Source of the DNA: a bacterium
Lineage (GTDB): Bacteria > Latescibacterota > UBA2968
Length of the DNA: 15,785 nt
NCBI GenBank assembly: GCA_027296045.1
Contig: JAPUJS010000481.1
Location: 1 to 15,785 of the forward strand
Direction: 5' to 3'
Shown here: piece after piece, positions 44-10,230 of the stretch
How positions within the stretch are numbered: position 1 is the first letter of the stretch
Layout: every line of letters begins with the position of its first letter
Notes under the pieces: generated by a model
What the model saw: the letters and a program-made list of their open reading frames with translations, nothing else
Told to the model about the DNA's origin: nothing
The model's database searches: none
Made by a program: the position numbers and the translations under genes

Positions 44-58
44 TGGCATACGCCTTGC
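44..58 (+). promoter_or_regulatory. Candidate sigma-54 (RpoN) -24/-12 promoter for the pspA operon
   Basis: TGGCAT-acgcc-TTGCG (GG at -24, GC at -12, 5-nt spacer) fits the TGGCAC-N5-TTGCW consensus. It lies about 75 nt upstream of the pspA ATG. An AT-rich tract (11-40) that could be a bending site lies upstream. psp operons in Enterobacteria are sigma-54 dependent. Confidence 0.6.
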
Positions 59-134: not shown

Positions 135-812
135 ATGGCACGTGGAATCTTTTCAAGAATGGCTGACATCATCAGGGCCAATGTCAATGAACTCGTCACC
201 CGGGCGGAAGACCCGGAAAAGATGATCCGACAAATGATTCTGGAAATGGAAGAGGCCGTTAACAAAGCCACCGCCTCGGTCGGAACCGCCGTGGCCAACG
301 AAAAACGTCTGGAACGGCAGCATCTGGAAAAACAAGACCAAATCGAAGCCTGGCAAAGCAAAGCCGAGCTGGCCGTTGAAGCCGGCGAAGACGACCTTGC
401 CCGACGCGCACTGGAACGCAAATCTGCAATTCAGGCTGCTGTCCAGGACCTGGAAGCCGCCCTGGATGAAAGCAAAAAGACGTCGTCCCAGCTCAAACAG
501 CAGCTCACCCAGCTCAAGGGCAAACTCGACGAAGCCCGCACACGCCAGGTCGCCCTCGTTGCACGCCGTCGGGCTGCCGAAGCACGCAAGCAAATCGCCA
601 AGAGTATAACGGGCGTGGGCGACGATGCCTTTTCCAGTTTTGACCGCTTCCGTCAGCGCATTGAAGCCGAAGAGGCCGAAGCCGAAGCCCATCAGGAAAT
701 CGCCGGTGCCGAACCTTCCCTCGACGACGCCTTTGCCAAACTCGAGCGCAAAAGCTCCGTGGAAGACGAACTCAAAGCCCTGAAAGACAAGATGGGAAAG
801 AAAAATGCGTGA
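135..812 (+). CDS. pspA: Phage shock protein A (PspA/IM30 family, ESCRT-III-like membrane remodelling protein)
   Basis: The N-terminus MARGIFSRMADIIRANVNELVTRAEDPEKMIRQMILEMEEAV closely matches the canonical PspA start [40 protein letters not shown]. The protein is 225 aa, helical, coiled-coil rich and charged. An RBS GAGGAG lies 8 nt upstream. Confidence 0.9.
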   Translation: MARGIFSRMADIIRANVNELVTRAEDPEKMIRQMILEMEEAVNKATASVGTAVANEKRLERQHLEKQDQIEAWQSKAELAVEAGEDDLARRALERKSAIQAAVQDLEAALDESKKTSSQLKQQLTQLKGKLDEARTRQVALVARRRAAEARKQIAKSITGVGDDAFSSFDRFRQRIEAEEAEAEAHQEIAGAEPSLDDAFAKLERKSSVEDELKALKDKMGKKNA

Positions 813-1512
813 TCTAGAAAAACTCGCCGACAAGATCGTCTTCGAAGTTGACAGGGCGGTTCGAGAGGTTCAAGATAAAATAGACCGTACGGTCAAACGA
901 GCAGAACAGAAAGTCAGGAAAGCGGAGCGCAGAACACAGCGGGTGTGGGAGTCGCAACCCGACTGGAGTGAATCCCGGACAGTTCGTGACTTCCAGACCG
1001 CTGCCACCAAAATTAAGAAATTCCCCACCCGCATCTCTGACCTGGCCACCGATGGGAGCTGCGCCATGCGATATCTATTTTCCTACTGTCTGAAAGGTTG
1101 GGCTTTCTGCCAGGGATTCGGCGGTCTCATGCTCGTCGCAATCACACTGGCAACCTCTGAACATCCCTGGCGCCAAGAAGAAATCAGTATTGGCCTGGTA
1201 CTCCTTGCCACCTCACAGGTTCTCTGGTGGATCGGTCAGCGCGTGAACAAATCCGCCGACCAGAAAGCCTACGCCCGCGATCAGCATCGCATCTTACGCC
1301 TTGCCCGCGAAAAAGGCGGCAACCTCACCGTCATCGAAGCCGCTACCGACGGACGGATGACCACCGAAAAAGCCGAAGAAATCCTGAGAGAACTGGCTGT
1401 ACAAGGCCACACCGAAGTCCGTGTCACCGACTCGGGCGTGATGGTCTACCACTTCCCAGAAATTTCCCGCTGGGATGAAAAACAGTGGGCCCGACCGGTT
1501 GACGAACTGTAA
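805..1512 (+). CDS. Membrane protein with N-terminal coiled-coil region, two predicted TM helices and a C-terminal winged-helix-like domain. Possible PspA partner or anchor.
   Basis: The start ATGCGTGA overlaps the pspA stop by 8 nt, which suggests translational coupling. Hydrophobic stretches are GFGGLMLVAITLATS and ISIGLVLLATSQVLWWIG. The C-terminus LTVIEAATDGRMTTEKAEEILRELAVQGHTEVRVTDSGVMVYHF has a wH-like pattern. No confident family assignment. Confidence 0.6.
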   Translation: MRDLEKLADKIVFEVDRAVREVQDKIDRTVKRAEQKVRKAERRTQRVWESQPDWSESRTVRDFQTAATKIKKFPTRISDLATDGSCAMRYLFSYCLKGWAFCQGFGGLMLVAITLATSEHPWRQEEISIGLVLLATSQVLWWIGQRVNKSADQKAYARDQHRILRLAREKGGNLTVIEAATDGRMTTEKAEEILRELAVQGHTEVRVTDSGVMVYHFPEISRWDEKQWARPVDEL

Positions 1513-1523
1513 GGGAGAATCCC

Positions 1524-1727
1524 ATGGACATGGACCTGATTTCGATTGGCTTGATGGTCGCCCTGATCATCCTGGCCTCAGCCGTTCACAAATACGTCGA
1601 CCGGCGCACCAAAGGCTCCATCCCCTCCGAAGCGGAAGAACGATTGATGGACCGGATGAATGAACTCGAACGCAGACTCACCGACATTCAAGATGTGATG
1701 CTCACCATTGACGATAAGCTCAATTGA
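1524..1727 (+). CDS. PspB-like small membrane protein, paralog 1 (N-terminal TM, C-terminal conserved helix motif)
   Basis: 67 aa with TM ISIGLMVALIILASAV. The C-terminus SEAEERLMDRMNELERRLTDIQDVMLTIDDKLN resembles the E. coli PspB tail SEQQRLAQLADEAKRMRERIQALESILDAE. RBS AAGGGAG. Confidence 0.7.
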   Translation: MDMDLISIGLMVALIILASAVHKYVDRRTKGSIPSEAEERLMDRMNELERRLTDIQDVMLTIDDKLN

Positions 1728-1744: not shown

Positions 1745-1954
1745 ATGCTTGGCATCACCATGATGATCGTCATCATCATGCTCGCTTCAGCCGCCTGCAA
1801 ATACGTGGACCGGAAAACCCGCCATTTCGGCCCCTCCGAAGCGGAAAAACGACTGATGGACCGAATGGATGAACTCGAACAAAGGCTCACCGATATTCAA
1901 GACATCATGATCGCTATAGATGACAAGATGAGCCGGCCCGAAATGAAAATGTAA
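1745..1954 (+). CDS. PspB-like small membrane protein, paralog 2
   Basis: Start at ATG 1745 (RBS GGGAGGA 6 nt upstream; the track ORF begins at TTG 1724). TM MMIVIIMLASAA. C-terminus SEAEKRLMDRMDELEQRLTDIQDIMIAIDDKM. About 70% identical to paralog 1. Confidence 0.7.
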   Translation: MLGITMMIVIIMLASAACKYVDRKTRHFGPSEAEKRLMDRMDELEQRLTDIQDIMIAIDDKMSRPEMKM

Positions 1955-1979: not shown

Positions 1980-2225
1980 ATGTCACATGAAATTATACGC
2001 ACCGTCTTGGCCGGCATCGTCACGATCATCCTGTCCTCCGGACTTTGTTATTATATCGTCGAGCGTGCAAAATCAAGACCCTGGAAATCCGGCAAAGCCC
2101 CCGACGTGGAAAAACTCGAACAACGCCTCAAATCCTTGGAACAGCGCCTCACTGATATCCAGGACATTGTTCTCTCCATTGACGATCAACTAAAACGCTC
2201 GTCCGGCATTCCCCTTGAGAAATAA
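1980..2225 (+). CDS. PspB-like small membrane protein, paralog 3
   Basis: 81 aa with TM VLAGIVTIILSSGLCYYIV. C-terminus VEKLEQRLKSLEQRLTDIQDIVLSIDDQLKR. RBS AAAGGAGGG. Confidence 0.7.
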   Translation: MSHEIIRTVLAGIVTIILSSGLCYYIVERAKSRPWKSGKAPDVEKLEQRLKSLEQRLTDIQDIVLSIDDQLKRSSGIPLEK

Positions 2226-2237
2226 AGGTCTGATCCC

Positions 2238-3083
2238 ATGAACAAATACCTTCTGTCCATCCTGGGAATCCTGCTCTCCATTTCGCACATCGAAGCCTAC
2301 GAAGGCCTCGACCTGTCGGCCCAAGATATTGCCCAGTTGTCAGCCGTTGGTGTCACTCCCGAATACGTCCAGCAAATTCAACAACTGGGCTACAAAGATA
2401 TCTCTGCCCATGATATTACCCAACTCTATGCCGTTGGTGTGAAACCAGACTACATACGACAAATACGCAAGCTGGGTTATAAAGATATTTCTATCCACGA
2501 CATTACCCAACTCCACGCCGTTGGAGTCAAACCAGACTATGTGAGACAAATCAAAGACCTGGGCTATAAAAACATTTCCATCCACGACATTACCCAACTC
2601 CACGCCGTTGGGGTCAAACCAAACTATGTGAGACAAATCCAAAATCTCGGTTACGACGATATCTCTATCCATGATATCACACAATTTTATGTAACCGGAG
2701 TAACGCCCGACTATATCAAAAAAATGAAGGGCTCAAAAACAAAAATACATATTCCCGAAATCAAAGTGGACGTGCCCAATATCCAGGTTCATATCCCTGA
2801 AATCAAAGTGAATGTCCCACATATTCAGGTTCATGTCTCTGGAGTACAACATACGCGGTCGAACCCATCACGATGGAAAAATGCAGCAAAAATTGCTGGC
2901 TTGAGTTTTCTGGTTCTCGGCATCGGCTTTGCAGTCTATAAACTGAAAGATCCATATCCTGCACCACCCGAAAAACCGGATATAGAATCCCGAATTACCG
3001 AGTTTGAACAACGTGTCACAGACCTTCAGGATATCTTGATCTCCATTGATGACCGATTAAATCGACAATTGAAACATAACTAA
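2238..3083 (+). CDS. Repeat-rich membrane protein: signal peptide, 5x 29-aa tandem repeats, 2x approximately 16-aa repeats, a single TM, and a PspB-like C-terminal motif (paralog 4)
   Basis: The N-terminus MNKYLLSILGILLSISHIEA looks like a signal peptide. The 29-aa repeat DISIHDITQLHAVGVKPDYVRQIKDLGYK occurs five times, and HIPEIKV(D/N)VP(N/H)IQVH occurs twice. TM IAGLSFLVLGIGFAVY. C-terminus RITEFEQRVTDLQDILISIDDRLNRQ. Nucleotide-level tandem repeats span 2390-2690. Confidence 0.75.
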   Translation: MNKYLLSILGILLSISHIEAYEGLDLSAQDIAQLSAVGVTPEYVQQIQQLGYKDISAHDITQLYAVGVKPDYIRQIRKLGYKDISIHDITQLHAVGVKPDYVRQIKDLGYKNISIHDITQLHAVGVKPNYVRQIQNLGYDDISIHDITQFYVTGVTPDYIKKMKGSKTKIHIPEIKVDVPNIQVHIPEIKVNVPHIQVHVSGVQHTRSNPSRWKNAAKIAGLSFLVLGIGFAVYKLKDPYPAPPEKPDIESRITEFEQRVTDLQDILISIDDRLNRQLKHN

Positions 3084-3106
3084 TTTGATCTTTGGAGGGA
3101 CATCCC

Positions 3107-3436
3107 ATGAAATTTCTGTTCCAGCTTGCACTCTGTATCTGTCTGATCATCCTCACGGCAGGAACCATTGGATTTGTTATAGAAGATGGGGACTTTTTTT
3201 CGGGTGGCATCATGCTGATTGTGGTCTGGAGCATTATGTTCGCAATGCTCAAAAGAGCCCTTATTTTTGGTCAATCGGATCAAACCGATTCTGTCAAACA
3301 GGAATGGGCGGACCGCATCACCACCCTTGAAAAACGCCTCACCGACATCCAGGACGTCGTCATCGCGATCGACGATAAGTTGACACGTCAGGAATTCAGA
3401 TCCGATACGACTGTCCGTTCAAAAGAAGAAGCCTGA
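3107..3436 (+). CDS. PspB-like membrane protein, paralog 5 (two TM helices plus the conserved C-terminal motif)
   Basis: Start ATG 3107 with RBS GGAGGGA 6 nt upstream (the track begins at TTG 3092). TMs LALCICLIILTAGTIGFVI and IMLIVVWSIMFAML. C-terminus ADRITTLEKRLTDIQDVVIAIDDKLTRQ. Confidence 0.7.
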   Translation: MKFLFQLALCICLIILTAGTIGFVIEDGDFFSGGIMLIVVWSIMFAMLKRALIFGQSDQTDSVKQEWADRITTLEKRLTDIQDVVIAIDDKLTRQEFRSDTTVRSKEEA

Positions 3437-3498
3437 TACGGGATGGCGCCAAATATACCTCAACATTTACTCTGGCATCAAAGAGAAAGGACCTGTTG

Positions 3499-3669
3499 AT
3501 GCTTATCAAAATTCTCGGCATTGTCTTCATGATCGTCGGAGGTGGCATGGCCCTGGGAATCCTGTTCCCCCTTATTGGCTCCATTTTCGGACTCTTGTGG
3601 CTGGCCCTCAAACTGGCTATCGCCCTCGTCTTCGTCTACGTCGGTCACCGGCTCTTTTCTCAAGACTAA
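3499..3669 (+). CDS. Small (56 aa) two-TM membrane protein, PspG-like. Not in the supplied ORF track, probably because it is under the apparent 61-aa cutoff.
   Basis: ATG 3499 is preceded by AGAAAGGA. The product MLIKILGIVFMIVGGGMALGILFPLIGSIFGLLWLALKLAIALVFVYVGHRLFSQD is entirely hydrophobic with a GGG turn. Its length and pattern loosely resemble E. coli PspG (LLFVIGFFVMLMVTG...LPWLLLAIAVVWVI). It lies inside the psp-like cluster. Confidence 0.5.
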   Translation: MLIKILGIVFMIVGGGMALGILFPLIGSIFGLLWLALKLAIALVFVYVGHRLFSQD

Positions 3670-3758
3670 TTTCGACCCATACCGGTATGGTTGTGTATCT
3701 CACAACCACGTGCAAAGGTGAATCGCGAACACCTTTGCCACACAAATAAGGATGTACC

Positions 3759-4340
3759 ATGTCTCGTTCCAACGACCAAGCCCTCATTCGCAAAGCGCTC
3801 AAAGGCGATCATCAAGCCTTCGAAACGCTTTATAAAGCACACTACCCCCAGATCTATGGGGTCATTGCCCAGCGAGCAAATGATCGCGATCTGATCGATG
3901 ACCTGGTGCAAAACACCTTCATGCGGGCGTTCCGATCGTTGCACACCTTTAAAGGCAACGCCGCTTTCTCAACCTGGCTCACCCAGATCGCCCTCAATGT
4001 GTACCGATCCCATCTTCGGTCCAAACAGGCCCGACAAAACTGGCTGATCGAAACCGAAGACCCCGAGCTTGTCCCGGGCATCATTCGAAACGTTTCTGCC
4101 TTTGACGATCCGGAACAATCCATGCAGAACAAAGAACGCACCGCCCTCATCCGAAAAGGCATCCAGTCTTTGCCCGAACGATATCGAGAAGCCATGTGGT
4201 TGCGCTATGTCAAAGACTGGTCTTACGAAGAAATTACCCATGCCCTTCAGGTGCCTATTGGCACCGTCAAAACCTGGCTTTGCAGAGCCAGGCGTCAACT
4301 GGCCGGAGAATTTCGCAAGATGGGACTCCAACCCGTTTAA
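3759..4340 (+). CDS. ECF-family RNA polymerase sigma-70 factor (sigma-24/RpoE-like)
   Basis: 193 aa. Region 2 is DLVQNTFMRAFRSLHTFKGNAAFSTWLTQIALNVYRSHLR. Region 4 is LPERYREAMWLRYVKDWSYEEITHALQVPIGTVKTWLCRARRQL. Typical ECF architecture. Confidence 0.9.
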   Translation: MSRSNDQALIRKALKGDHQAFETLYKAHYPQIYGVIAQRANDRDLIDDLVQNTFMRAFRSLHTFKGNAAFSTWLTQIALNVYRSHLRSKQARQNWLIETEDPELVPGIIRNVSAFDDPEQSMQNKERTALIRKGIQSLPERYREAMWLRYVKDWSYEEITHALQVPIGTVKTWLCRARRQLAGEFRKMGLQPV

Positions 4341-4395
4341 ACTTGACGGTGGGGTCATTCTGTCCCTATCTTGCCCAATAATAAGGAGGCCGACT

Positions 4396-5001
4396 ATGGA
4401 AGCCTGGTGGGTCGGACTTGCACCCCTGAACCAGATGCTGTATTCTGTCGCCATCTTTTTCAGCATTTTGTTCCTCTGGCAGTTCCTGAGTGCTTTAATT
4501 GGACTGGGCGGCAGTTCGGACTTCGATGTCGCCGAAACCGGTGCCAGTGAACTGGGCCCCGAAGTAGATGACGGATTTCACGAAAGTGGTATTGCCACCT
4601 TCAAATTGCTCTCCGTCCGATCCGTCATCGCCTTTGGGATGCTCTTCGGCTGGGCAAGTGCCCTCTACCTTGAATCGGGCCTGGACCTCTCAGCCGCTGG
4701 ACTTCGGGGCATCTTCTGGGGTACAGCTGGAATGGCGCTGGTTGCCTATTTTTTCTACAAAGTCCAGCGGCTCACCGAAACCGGTAACCTCAAACTGGAA
4801 ACCTGTGTCGGCACCGATGGCGAAGTTTATATCGACATTCCCCAAAACGGAGCCGGTCAAATCCGAGTAATCGAAAGCGGGGTTGTCAACTATGTATCTG
4901 CCCGAAGCAAAGGGGGGAACGCCATCCCGAACAAAACCTCTGTTCGCGTTCTGAAAACCCTCGATATGACCACAGTGGAAGTCGAACCCACCCATTCCTA
5001 A
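4396..5001 (+). CDS. NfeD-like membrane protein (short NfeD/YuaF family; N-terminal TM helices plus C-terminal OB-fold)
   Basis: Start ATG 4396 with RBS AAGGAGG. The TM-rich N-terminus carries the C-terminus GTDGEVYIDIPQNGAGQIRVIESGVVNYVSARSKGGNAIPNKTSVRVLKTLDMTTVEVEP, typical of the NfeD OB domain. It sits immediately upstream of a flotillin gene, as in yuaF-floT operons. Confidence 0.8.
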   Translation: MEAWWVGLAPLNQMLYSVAIFFSILFLWQFLSALIGLGGSSDFDVAETGASELGPEVDDGFHESGIATFKLLSVRSVIAFGMLFGWASALYLESGLDLSAAGLRGIFWGTAGMALVAYFFYKVQRLTETGNLKLETCVGTDGEVYIDIPQNGAGQIRVIESGVVNYVSARSKGGNAIPNKTSVRVLKTLDMTTVEVEPTHS

Positions 5002-5021
5002 ATCCATCTTCGCCCAGCCTT

Positions 5022-5061
5022 CAGCCGTCTGCTCTCCTGGCCTGGCAAGAGCAGACGGCTG
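5022..5061 (+). other. Perfect 14-bp stem-loop between nfeD-like and flotillin genes (intercistronic hairpin, not a canonical terminator)
   Basis: CAGCCGTCTGCTCT - 12-nt loop - AGAGCAGACGGCTG. Followed by GAGCGCTGAGCGCC and a 4-T run; no real U-tract. Confidence 0.5.
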
Positions 5062-5105
5062 AGCGCTGAGCGCCATTTTCTATCCCAATCGGAGGGGAGG
5101 GTCTT

Positions 5106-6755
5106 ATGCCCATCGAGATGATTCTCATCATCGGACTCGCTGCGGTTGTTGTTCTGCTTTTCATTACTTTTATTTCTCGCTACAAACGCTGTCCGTCCAA
5201 TAGAATCCTGGTCATTTATGGCAAAACCGGTACCGGCACAGCGGCCAAATGCATACACGGAGGTGCCGCCTTTGTAATTCCCCTCCTGCAGGACTATGCA
5301 TATCTCGACCTGGAACCCTTTGTGGTTCCCATCGACCTGGACAACGCATTGTCCCAGGAGAACATCCGTGTCTCGGTGCCCACCACCGTTACAGCGGCCA
5401 TCTCCAATCAGCCCGGCATTATGCAAAATGCGGCCGTTCGCCTTTTAGGACTCAGCCGCCAGCAGGTGCAAAGCCAGGCCCAGGACATCATCCTCGGTCA
5501 GATGCGGGCGGTGATTGCCACGATGCAAATTGAGGAAATCAACCGGGACCGCCAGGGCTTTATGAGCAAGGTCAACGAAGCGGTGTCGACCGAGATGGAA
5601 AAAATCGGCCTTACCGTTATCAACGTAAACATCAAAGATATCGATGACGAAAGCGGCTATATCACAGCCATTGGCCGGAAAGCCGCCGCCGAGGCCGTCA
5701 ACCAGGCCGCCATCGATGTGGCCGAACAGGAAAAAATGGGCAAGGTGGGTGTGGCCGAACGGGATCGCGACCGCCGAAAAGCGGTTGCTGCCGCCGAAGC
5801 CAGTGCCGATATTGGCGAATCGGAAGCCGAACGGGAAAGACGTCGACAGGTCGCCGCACTGAACTCCGAAGCAGAAATCGGCGAATCGGAAGCCGAACGG
5901 GAAAAACGCCGACAGGTTGCCGCATTAAACGCCGAAGCAGAAATCGGCGAGGCAGAAGCCGGACGGGACAAACGGCAGCGCGTGGCATCTCTCGAAGCCG
6001 AGGCTGTCCAGACAGAATCCGAAGCGGACGCCAAAAAAGCCGGGTATCTGGCCAACCAGCGTGTGGCCGAGGAAAGTGCCCGACGCAAAAGCGAAGAAGC
6101 CTCCAAAGCGGCTGACGGTGCCATCCGGGTTGCCCAGGAAAATGCGCAAAAAGAAGCCGAAGAAGCCAGAGCGCTTCGCGAAGAAGCCCGTCTGAAAGCC
6201 GAAGTCGTGGTCCAGGCCGAAGCAGAAAAACAGCGTCAGATTGTGGAAGCCGAAGGCGAAAAAGAACAACGACGCCTGGTTGCCGAAGGCGAAGCCGCCG
6301 CCATTCTTGCCCAGAAAGAAGCCGAAGCCAAGGGAACCCAGGCGATCCTGGATGCCAAGGCCGAAGGTTATCGAAAAATGGTCGAAGCCTGCGACCACAA
6401 CGATCAGGCTGCTGCGGCCTTTCTCATTATTGAACGCCTCACCGAAGTCGCCCACATTCAGGCCGAAGCCATCCGCAACCTGCCCATCGAGAAGATCATG
6501 GTCTGGGACAGTGGCAACGGGGAAAGTGGTATGTCCAACCTGGGCCAGCGGTTGATGGGGGCGATTCCCCCAATGCACGATCTGGCTCGCCTGGCCGGAC
6601 TGGAATTGCCCGAATTCCTGGGTAGACTAACCCAGAAAGAAGACGGGGCCACTGGAAATAACCGGACCGGGGAAAAAACAGAAACGCAGGTCGAAAACCA
6701 GGATGCAGCCCAGGATCAGACAGGCGAGACGACAAAAACAGGCGGGGAAGCGTAA
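5106..6755 (+). CDS. Flotillin (SPFH/Band-7 family, FloT/YuaG/YqiK-like)
   Basis: 549 aa. N-terminal TM IIGLAAVVVLLFITFI, then an SPFH domain (RILVIYGKTGTGTAAKCIHGGAAFVIPLLQDYAYLDLEPF...). Long E/A-rich coiled-coil repeats (EAEIGESEAERERRRQVAALN x3) and a conserved C-terminus IIERLTEVAHIQAEAIRNL. RBS GGAGGGGAGGG. Confidence 0.9.
   Translation: MPIEMILIIGLAAVVVLLFITFISRYKRCPSNRILVIYGKTGTGTAAKCIHGGAAFVIPLLQDYAYLDLEPFVVPIDLDNALSQENIRVSVPTTVTAAISNQPGIMQNAAVRLLGLSRQQVQSQAQDIILGQMRAVIATMQIEEINRDRQGFMSKVNEAVSTEMEKIGLTVINVNIKDIDDESGYITAIGRKAAAEAVNQAAIDVAEQEKMGKVGVAERDRDRRKAVAAAEASADIGESEAERERRRQVAALNSEAEIGESEAEREKRRQVAALNAEAEIGEAEAGRDKRQRVASLEAEAVQTESEADAKKAGYLANQRVAEESARRKSEEASKAADGAIRVAQENAQKEAEEARALREEARLKAEVVVQAEAEKQRQIVEAEGEKEQRRLVAEGEAAAILAQKEAEAKGTQAILDAKAEGYRKMVEACDHNDQAAAAFLIIERLTEVAHIQAEAIRNLPIEKIMVWDSGNGESGMSNLGQRLMGAIPPMHDLARLAGLELPEFLGRLTQKEDGATGNNRTGEKTETQVENQDAAQDQTGETTKTGGEA
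5811..6008 (+). repeat. Three tandem approximately 66-nt in-frame repeats inside flotillin (22-aa EA-rich coiled-coil units)
   Basis: ATCGGCGAATCGGAAGCCGAACGGGAAA(G/A)ACG(T/C)CGACAGGT(C/T)GCCGCA... repeated, with the third copy more diverged. Confidence 0.8.
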
Positions 6756-8611: not shown

Positions 8612-8641
8612 TTTTATAACCCTATTTGGAAAATTTCATCA

Positions 8642-8693
8642 ATCGATTTATCTTGTATCGATCGACTTGTCTTGTAAATCGACTTATCTTGTT
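8642..8693 (+). promoter_or_regulatory. Three tandem 16-bp direct repeats ending exactly at the response-regulator start codon
   Basis: ATCGATTTATCTTGTA (8642-8657), ATCGACTTGTCTTGTA (8661-8676), ATCGACTTATCTTGTT (8678-8693). The ATG is at 8694. Confidence 0.75.
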
Positions 8694-10103: not shown

Positions 10104-10114
10104 ATAAAAGTATT

Positions 10115-10223
10115 CAGGAGACAGAAGACAGGAGACAGGAGCCGCTCCACTCATCCGCCCAGGAGAAACAAAGGCGGGGTTGGGTGGGGCTCCTGTATTC
10201 TGTCTCCTGTCTCCTGTCTCCTG
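10115..10223 (+). repeat. Long imperfect palindrome built from (CAGGAGACA)n on the left arm and (TGTCTCCTG)n on the right arm. Possible terminator or translational control element.
   Basis: Left arm CAGGAGACAGAAGACAGGAGACAGGAGCC and right arm GGCTCCTGTATTCTGTCTCCTGTCTCCTGTCTCCTG. The approximately 45-nt loop contains a nested CCGCCC/GGCGGG stem. It ends 7 nt before ATG 10231 and is followed by ATTTCTT. Confidence 0.7.
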
Positions 10224-10230
10224 ATTTCTT

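Follow-up and report, generated by a model that had tools for sequence, protein, structure and literature searches.

A repeat-bearing membrane protein encoded near pspA in Candidatus Latescibacterota is a putative member of an undescribed family of bitopic inner-membrane proteins

PspB and PspC of the phage shock protein (Psp) system are thought to couple the state of the membrane or envelope to PspA. In other lineages, the non-homologous and lineage-restricted membrane proteins LiaI (Bacillus) and PspM (Mycobacterium) are encoded beside pspA and anchor or regulate the PspA homolog. To our knowledge, the way in which polymers of PspA/IM30/Vipp1 are directed to damaged membrane is known only in these few models (PspBC, LiaI and PspM). 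Here we describe a gene located at positions 2238-3083 of contig JAPUJS010000481.1 (assembly GCA_027296045.1; lineage Latescibacterota, UBA2968), of which the whole analysed stretch of 15,785 nucleotides (nt) is called the window below. A first-pass annotation, made from the letters alone, had described the product of 281 amino acids (aa) as a PspB-like paralog fused to a tandem-repeat extracytoplasmic domain. Our analysis suggests that it may belong, as an accessory member with an ectodomain, to an as yet undescribed bitopic inner-membrane protein family that works with PspA, a protein of the IM30/ESCRT-III type (ESCRT, the endosomal sorting complexes needed for transport); we put this forward tentatively, as having a little less than an even chance of being right.

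The closest described proteins are PspB and the cytoplasmic C-terminal region of PspC from Enterobacteria. Like them, the family consists of small bitopic proteins of the inner membrane which have a cytoplasmic helix and whose genes directly follow pspA, in a locus apparently controlled by sigma-54. However, the window protein would export about 195 residues whereas PspB has no ectodomain, and the family has an invariant motif of its own. Compared with the layout of PspB, the 281-aa protein retains the transmembrane (TM)-plus-helix module and adds a signal peptide and an ectodomain. The small paralogs (67-81 aa) share the layout of PspB, each with an N-terminal hydrophobic segment, a basic cluster and a helix, as read by the positive-inside rule only. 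With LiaI and PspM the analogy is functional only; their folds and topologies differ, and they have neither a modular set of ectodomains nor several paralogs built on one cytoplasmic helix.

The 281-aa protein is encoded by a single open reading frame (ORF) from ATG to stop on the plus strand, which starts 12 nt past the stop codon of the upstream gene. Its parts are given in Table 1. The layout is common to 14 full-length orthologs, and the signal peptide, five 29-aa repeats, two HIPEI-type repeats, single TM helix and shared C-terminal motif named in the first-pass annotation were all found. The N-terminus reads MNK, LLSILGILLSI and SHIEA/YEG (slash, predicted cleavage), in which MNK is the n-region and the h-region of 11 residues (Kyte-Doolittle hydropathy 2.77) is too short for a TM helix and thus signal-peptide-like; cleavage sites of the AxA type are clearer in orthologs (CNAFA/DQY and VPASA/QGY). 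A lipoprotein was also considered, because some orthologs have A-C-N in the signal peptide, and was rejected, as Cys is absent from the window protein and Phe occupies position -3. In most orthologs a cluster RKR, KKR or RRR directly follows the TM helix. On the basis of the signal peptide and this K/R cluster, the repeats are predicted to lie outside the cytoplasm, as had been supposed, and the tail inside. The stalk between repeats and membrane is Pro/His-rich and predicted to be non-globular, with a predicted local distance difference test score (pLDDT) below 50 at aa 173-216 in an AlphaFold2 (AF2) model of the protein built on the 14 orthologs. Its two units of 14 aa (42 nt), HIPEIKVDVPNIQV and HIPEIKVNVPHIQV (aa 171-198, nt 2748-2831), are 81% identical in DNA; the array was also called by Tandem Repeats Finder (TRF; 2748-2841, period 42), and the 42-nt spacing was confirmed by a second repeat search. 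HIPEI pentapeptides occur in 2-5 copies in the stalks of orthologs (P0002, P0005, P0008 and P0009 among them; related proteins and loci are denoted P and L, respectively). That the His/Glu spacing of this stalk could give pH or metal-ion sensitivity is pure speculation. The tail of the protein ends in RITEFEQRVTDLQDILISIDDRLNRQLKHN.

Table 1. Coordinates of the repeat-protein gene, its parts and the neighbouring features in the window
Feature	Positions	Strand	Basis or remark
Sigma-54-type -24/-12 element TGGCATACGCCTTGC	44..58	+	one mismatch to TGGCAC-N5-TTGC
pspA (PspA/IM30), first operon gene	135..812	+	Pfam PF04012, E 1.4e-45
235-aa membrane protein, overlaps pspA stop by 8 nt	805..1512	+	conserved ORF
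Paralog 1, 67 aa, N-terminal TM + motif	1524..1727	+	
Paralog 2, 69 aa from ATG 1745 (ORF open from 1724), TM + motif	1745..1954	+	
Paralog 3, 81 aa, TM + motif	1980..2225	+	
Repeat protein, whole gene; putative 281-aa type-I (N-out, C-in) bitopic membrane protein	2238..3083	+	ORF and orthologs
Predicted signal peptide, aa 1-20, cut after HIEA	2238..2297	+	inferred from h-region and ortholog sites
Five 29-aa (87-nt) helix-hairpin-helix repeats, predicted alpha-solenoid ectodomain	2313..2747	+	aa 26-170; TRF, AF2
Stalk: two 14-aa HIPEIKVxVPxIQV repeats (2748-2831) and linker	2748..2882	+	TRF, AF2
Predicted TM helix, aa 216-234	2883..2939	+	Kyte-Doolittle maximum 1.81; AF2 helix 213-236
Predicted cytoplasmic C-terminal amphipathic helix with family motif RITEFEQRVTDLQDILISIDDRLNR	2982..3077	+	aa 249-280; AF2 helix
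Paralog 5, 109 aa from ATG 3107, two hydrophobic segments + motif	3107..3436	+	

The TM-plus-tail module is common to the 281-aa protein and its four small neighbours (paralogs 1, 2, 3 and 5), and ten residues (R, E, R, T, D, Q, D, I, D and D) are invariant in 5/5, which bears out the paralogy proposed earlier. The cytoplasmic helix carries the near-invariant motif R-[LV]-[TN]-D-[IL]-Q-D-[IV]-x-[IL]-[ST]-I-D, and R252, F256, R259, D262, L263, Q264, I266, L267, S269, I270, R273 and R276 are invariant among the orthologs of the 281-aa protein. An a/d heptad spacing (I253-F256-V260-L263-L267-I270-L274) can be read from the sequence over four heptads; since several of the invariant polar residues lie off the heptad face, a specific partner rather than a generic zipper is suggested. 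The idea that the helix mimics a helix of PspA, with FExR[VI] corresponding to FDRFRQRI of PspA, was discarded, as hhalign gave a probability of 0.6%.

As members of the family we counted proteins with a TM helix and, after it, a C-terminal helix bearing R-[LV]-[TN]-D-[ILT]-Q-D...[IL]-[DS]; the window protein has both. A profile made from the five modules of the window retrieved 207 clusters (50% identity) at E<=1e-3 among 1.84 billion representatives. Most of them are 63-126 aa in size, and about 15 are longer (over about 150 aa) and have the motif at or near the C-terminus. On the same TM-plus-motif module, some members have no ectodomain and others two TM segments; the ectodomains on the long ones comprise the same solenoid as in the window protein, a diverged second solenoid, CBM6-like and CBM9_1 domains and a duplicated module. 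CBM9_1 was found above the Pfam cut-off in four motif proteins, and the CBM6-like assignment is sub-threshold (CBM_6, E 0.006). TM2 (PF05154) proteins with the motif also exist. Further motif proteins of related operons (L004, 3220-4176 and 4296-5078; L006, 2153-2533; L026, 9323-10324) include a strongly diverged second solenoid with LRNFD-type units, a CBM6-like ectodomain, a protein with a TM2 domain and a pair of CBM9-like paralogs in succession. Each operon encodes 3-8 motif paralogs.

The Psp-like system envisaged by the first reading is indeed a pspA operon, and the window is syntenic with several independent contigs of metagenome-assembled genomes (MAGs) of Candidatus Latescibacterota. 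The operons of type 1 (the window, L001/L011, L004, L006, L010, L013, L023-25 and L029) have the order pspA, a membrane protein of about 215-235 aa, small motif protein(s), the repeat protein and a motif protein with two TM segments; next come a small membrane protein (about 57 aa), a sigma factor of the extracytoplasmic function (ECF) class, a tetratricopeptide repeat (TPR) histidine kinase and a sigma-54 response regulator; and finally a SpoIIE phosphatase, ThiI, LysR and an inositol-phosphate synthase. Paralog 5 is kept at the same position in all of them. In the operons of type 2 (L022 and L026-28), which are unrelated to those of type 1, a divergent PspA is followed by TM2 and one or two CBM9/motif proteins, and no ECF sigma factor, kinase or sigma-54 regulator was found. 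Motif proteins lie directly downstream of pspA in every locus reaching far enough upstream, in both types; as the type-2 operons keep pspA and motif proteins without the ECF sigma factor, the motif tracks pspA and not the sigma factor. The repeat-type member is optional, since L029 (an 8-Mb contig) has a window-like operon with a duplicated module and a TM2/motif protein instead. Full-length orthologs of the repeat protein were found only in Candidatus Latescibacterota, in at least 4 genomes among 185,579 species representatives, a count which comes from a pattern-based scan and is a lower bound.

The 235-aa protein encoded right after pspA is present in every type-1 operon with 55-61% identity. 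Its N-terminal helix is charged, two segments are hydrophobic, and the C-terminal region, which resembles a winged helix, is very conserved; it matches no Pfam or NCBIfam family. We consider it a candidate core partner of PspA and a possible alternative docking partner for the motif proteins. Upstream of the operon, the pattern TGGCAT-N5-TTGC is located about 73-90 nt before the pspA start in the window, in L001 (8305-8319) and in L004 (322-336), the three loci in which the distance was measured; the pattern as such also occurs in L010 (6444-6458) and L013 (514-528). A single element of this type is not above chance within the window, but that it keeps its position suggests control by sigma-54, as known from classical psp operons.

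The repeat array consists of five units of exactly 29 aa (87 nt) in register, with the consensus x-S-x-x-D-x-x-x-L-x-x-x-G-V-x-P-x-Y-I-x-x-x-x-x-L-G-Y. The proposed check with TRF confirmed the tandem array (2373-2671, period 87, 3.4 copies, 79% matches, score 338), and a second repeat search gave the same 87-nt spacing. The units had been called near-identical; this holds for units 2-4 (76-83% amino-acid identity among themselves) but not for units 1 and 5 (34-66% to the others). In DNA, units 3 and 4 are 85% identical, with a third-codon-position identity of 0.72, and the remaining pairs are 48-75% identical, with third-position values of 0.2-0.55. Such low values indicate that most units are old duplicates kept at the protein level rather than fresh DNA copies. 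The expected copy-number variation is therefore real in so far as orthologs have 3-6 units, of which the first and last are positionally conserved and the internal number varies, but rapid change by slippage is not implied. Five units are present both in the window protein and in P0001, its nearest relative (85% identical). In its N-terminal half, unit 4 resembles unit 3 in the window and unit 2 in P0001, a pattern consistent with occasional exchange between units. A minus-strand ORF of 114 aa (2340-2684) lies wholly within the array and is very unlikely to be a gene, because its repetitive translation is a shadow of the sense-strand repeats.

AF2 models the units with confidence (pLDDT 84-95 for aa 30-160); each consists of two helices, 8-10 residues in length, that meet at the G-V-x-P hairpin. 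The units are predicted to stack as an alpha-solenoid of about 145 residues. No Pfam-A or NCBIfam family matched the 29-aa unit above threshold. Sub-threshold Pfam matches (Post_transc_reg, LYRM_2, DUF2857, UBA and HTH_68) were scattered and inconsistent among relatives, and were taken as repeat-driven noise. A natural solved homolog was sought in the PDB by sequence and with Foldseek and none was found; the only match was the designed helical-repeat cage component 8v2d_J (E 2.3e-11 by sequence and 2.8e-5 by Foldseek), so the Foldseek check suggested earlier pointed to no natural family. The closest known folds are two-helix alpha-solenoid repeats, i.e. designed proteins (8v2d_J), mTERF repeats and helix-hairpin-helix motifs. 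The window protein has a helix, the G-V-x-P hairpin and a helix in its model and gave no match at E<=1 to the helix-hairpin-helix families PF00633, PF14520 and PF12836; its relative P0026 reached 26.6 bits against HHH_5, for which the cut-off is 27. Binding of polyanions (DNA or lipopolysaccharide) by such a solenoid was considered and found to be unsupported, the isoelectric point (pI) of the ectodomain ranging from 4.4 to 9.8 across relatives.

The same 29-aa repeat occurs in secreted proteins of about 330 aa from Acidobacteriota/Thermoanaerobaculia and one Eisenbacteria MAG, and in Bacteroidota-like proteins of 370-410 aa. It is also fused at the extracytoplasmic C-terminus of the Peptidase_M56 (BlaR1-type) proteins P0040, P0045, P0046 and P0048, all of which carry PF05569 and are matched by the window protein at E 4.6e-17 to 1.2e-11. 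In L031, a Bacteroidota-like contig, genes for a Penicillinase_R (BlaI-type) protein, an M56 peptidase and the secreted 382-aa protein P0017 lie head to tail at 2924-6149; P0017 has 5-6 copies of the repeat, which suggests that it is an accessory of this blaI-M56 signalling pair. Being both fused to M56 transducers and encoded after blaI-M56, the repeat recurs as an outward-facing module of membrane signalling proteins. The window protein resembles the BlaR1/M56 transducers in that the same repeat type faces outward on or beside a membrane signalling protein; it differs from them in having no M56 zinc-metalloprotease domain (no Pfam match to PF05569) and no nearby BlaI repressor, and its output end would be a short helix, not a protease. 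In the BlaR1/M56 proteins the repeat is likewise uncharacterised. A 58-column profile of the repeat matched only fragments of 47-101 aa or truncated gene calls, none with a convincing Pfam domain. The repeat is, on sequence evidence, widespread and unnamed, and the earlier remark that no known domain was recognised in it stands as far as curated families and natural structures are concerned, but the repeat is not unique to this protein. In P0004 (233 aa, from a 2.5-kb ENA contig) the array follows a thiolase-like segment (PF22691) and not a signal peptide; P0004 probably reflects a chimeric assembly or a frameshift in the gene call.

Sequence and model give the following layout, on which the tentatively suggested partnership with PspA builds. 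The Sec signal peptide is predicted to export the N-terminus, and the Pro/His-rich stalk of about 45 residues to keep the solenoid off the membrane; one TM helix then leads to about 45 cytoplasmic residues ending in the four-heptad amphipathic motif helix. Because all paralogs have the same cytoplasmic helix, docking on one common cytoplasmic partner is suggested. The likeliest partner would be PspA; alternatives are the 235-aa protein, or the paralogs themselves as a hetero-oligomeric coiled coil. The ectodomain might set where or when docking occurs by engaging an envelope component, such as a cell-wall or periplasmic polymer or a protein. The solenoid might thereby serve either in sensing or in anchoring and positioning the complex, and the evidence fits both. 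The sensor role first proposed for it thus stays conjectural, modestly strengthened by the link of the repeat to M56 proteins and by the carbohydrate-binding-type ectodomains of sister proteins.

We favour this PspA-partner reading because of the paralogy and the conservation of the motif across very different N-termini, the linkage to pspA in two operon types, the interchangeable ectodomains on the same TM-plus-motif module and the dispensability of the repeat-type member (L029). The predicted placement of the ectodomain outside the cytoplasm, the recurrence of the repeat on M56/BlaR1 transducers and after blaI-M56 genes, and the conserved sigma-54-type element together with the sigma-54 activator in the locus, which parallel classical psp regulation, also speak for it. 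Several points weigh against it. PspA binding, the sensing role and the target of the ectodomain are all things that we infer from sequence; the motif has no detectable similarity to PspB, the PspC C-terminus or PspA; the independent loci inspected for the linkage to pspA number about a dozen, against some 207 clusters in the family, and gene order is association, not mechanism. The topology was derived from simple rules (positive-inside rule and hydropathy). Furthermore, every position conserved inside the units has a structural role (S-x-x-D as helix cap, G-V-x-P as hairpin, Y and LGY), and neither a candidate ligand site nor a charge signature is conserved in the repeats. With such positions and a variable pI, no ligand site can be proposed.

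The name PspB-like invites the view that the family is a highly diverged true PspB, which together with a PspC-like partner would signal membrane stress and free PspA from its sigma-54 activator, the repeat being an added periplasmic input. The size of the small paralogs (65-81 aa), their N-out/C-in bitopic layout and their position after pspA fit this view, as do the sigma-54 element and activator in the locus; in the hhalign alignments, moreover, the family helix always begins opposite RMRERIQALE, a helix of PspB. However, none of the five window paralogs matched Pfam PF06667 (PspB) at E<=1, and across the family 1/101 members did (E 1e-3). The hhalign probability against enterobacterial PspB, in an alignment of low diversity (72-99% identity), was 6% with 10 family sequences and 20% with 101, over 14-15 columns that exclude the hallmark motif; an HMM (hidden Markov model) built from PspB scored <=10 bits on the family; and TDIQD...IDD, the most conserved motif of the family, has no counterpart in PspB. 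In the stretch from pspA to the ECF sigma gene, no encoded protein matched the PspC Pfam domain, and the activator in this locus differs from PspF in being a complete response regulator that has a kinase of its own. Paralog 3 and one other paralog gave weak matches to the C-terminal part of the NCBIfam PspC model TIGR02978 (E 1e-3 and 0.04, far below the cut-off). Ravi et al. (2024; PMC11237479) described proteins in which PspC is fused to a PspB domain that is C-terminal and divergent, and duplications of PspB in psp operons are known (PMC11237479). From these weak matches and fusions together, a very remote relationship to PspB may be kept in mind, the connection being our own. Overall, we regard a true PspB as quite unlikely; the homology implied in the first-pass annotation found no support, and the term PspB-like is valid for architecture and gene position only.

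Two other accounts do not place PspA binding at the centre. The motif proteins could be anti-sigma-like membrane regulators of the ECF sigma factor (3759-4340), with the ectodomains as signal inputs and PspA merely co-regulated; the ECF sigma gene lies a few genes downstream in all type-1 operons, and no canonical anti-sigma gene was recognised beside it. Yet the type-2 operons have pspA and motif proteins without that sigma factor, and 3-8 paralogs per operon would be unusual for a sigma/anti-sigma pair in 1:1 relation. Classical anti-sigma domains are N-terminal, about 80 residues long and often carry HxxxCxxC. In comparison with ECF anti-sigma factors the topology is opposite, the N-terminal part of the window protein being the exported one; its cytoplasmic part is C-terminal, only about 45 residues long and without HxxxCxxC, and no anti-sigma Pfam match was obtained. 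This account appears very unlikely. Alternatively, the shared helix could be a self-assembly coiled coil, so that the paralogs form a structural hetero-oligomeric scaffold which tethers the inner membrane to the cell wall without binding PspA directly. Such a scaffold would agree with the clean a/d heptad pattern, the presence of several paralogs per operon, the CBM9 and CBM6-like ectodomains on sister proteins and the long non-globular stalk separating the solenoid from the membrane. The NfeD-like and flotillin (Band_7) genes found in the window and L029, and also in L004, are in line with it too; L001, on the other hand, keeps the repeat protein and lacks both genes. The invariant polar residues (T/N, D, Q, D, D, D and R) on non-core faces of the helix argue for a specific external partner, and a pure scaffold, which we think unlikely, would not account for the strict placement next to pspA in both operon types.

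Returning to the partnership with PspA, a lineage-specific membrane partner of PspA is a known kind of protein; the family, its motif and the solenoid are new. Two large comparative studies of Psp systems (PMC11237479 and one other) contain none of the terms looked for as marks of this family or its ectodomains, and the family does not appear to be described in them. A literature search for the repeat, for helical repeats of M56 proteins and for phage shock in Latescibacteria returned nothing relevant. If the reading is correct, one conserved cytoplasmic helix combined with swappable exported domains would offer a simple and testable model of PspA partnering, and the carbohydrate-binding-type ectodomains suggest a link between the state of the cell wall or periplasm and a repair system of the ESCRT-III type. 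In its widest form, which we consider possible but rather doubtful, the family would be an unrecognised class of PspA partners in which a shared docking helix bears interchangeable periplasmic modules (the 29-aa solenoid, CBM9, CBM6-like and TM2), several per operon acting as a combinatorial array that reports the place or time of a disturbance in the cell wall or periplasm to the machinery of membrane repair; the solenoid would then be a general extracytoplasmic input module used by BlaR1/M56 proteins as well. Candidatus Latescibacterota and the further host lineages, all uncultured, are not tractable organisms, and all functional statements made here are drawn from genomes. Independently of these questions, an unnamed and widespread extracytoplasmic repeat of 29 residues that recurs on BlaR1/M56-type sensors merits the definition of a family and a structure.

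Several features were observed further downstream in the window. The NfeD-like and flotillin genes occupy 4381-6755, between the ECF sigma and TPR kinase genes, and a tandem repeat of 66 nt within the flotillin gene (5814-6001) encodes successive segments of the form AEIGESEAERE(K/R)RRQVAALN. A tandem repeat of 19 nt, ATCAATCGACTTATCTTGT, is present in 3 copies with 81% matches at 8638-8692; it lies immediately upstream of the sigma-54 response-regulator gene, overlaps the called start in part, and may be an array of regulator-binding sites. Between the stop of this gene and the start of the SpoIIE phosphatase gene, two inverted 7-nt arrays, CAGGAGA in 3.9 copies (10115-10141) and CTCCTGT in 4.9 copies (10190-10223), make up a region at 10114-10224. 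The single long hairpin into which they fold has a folding energy of -74.7 kcal/mol (z -9.4; 0/200 shuffles fold as well) and might act as a terminator or attenuator, or be a repeat element.

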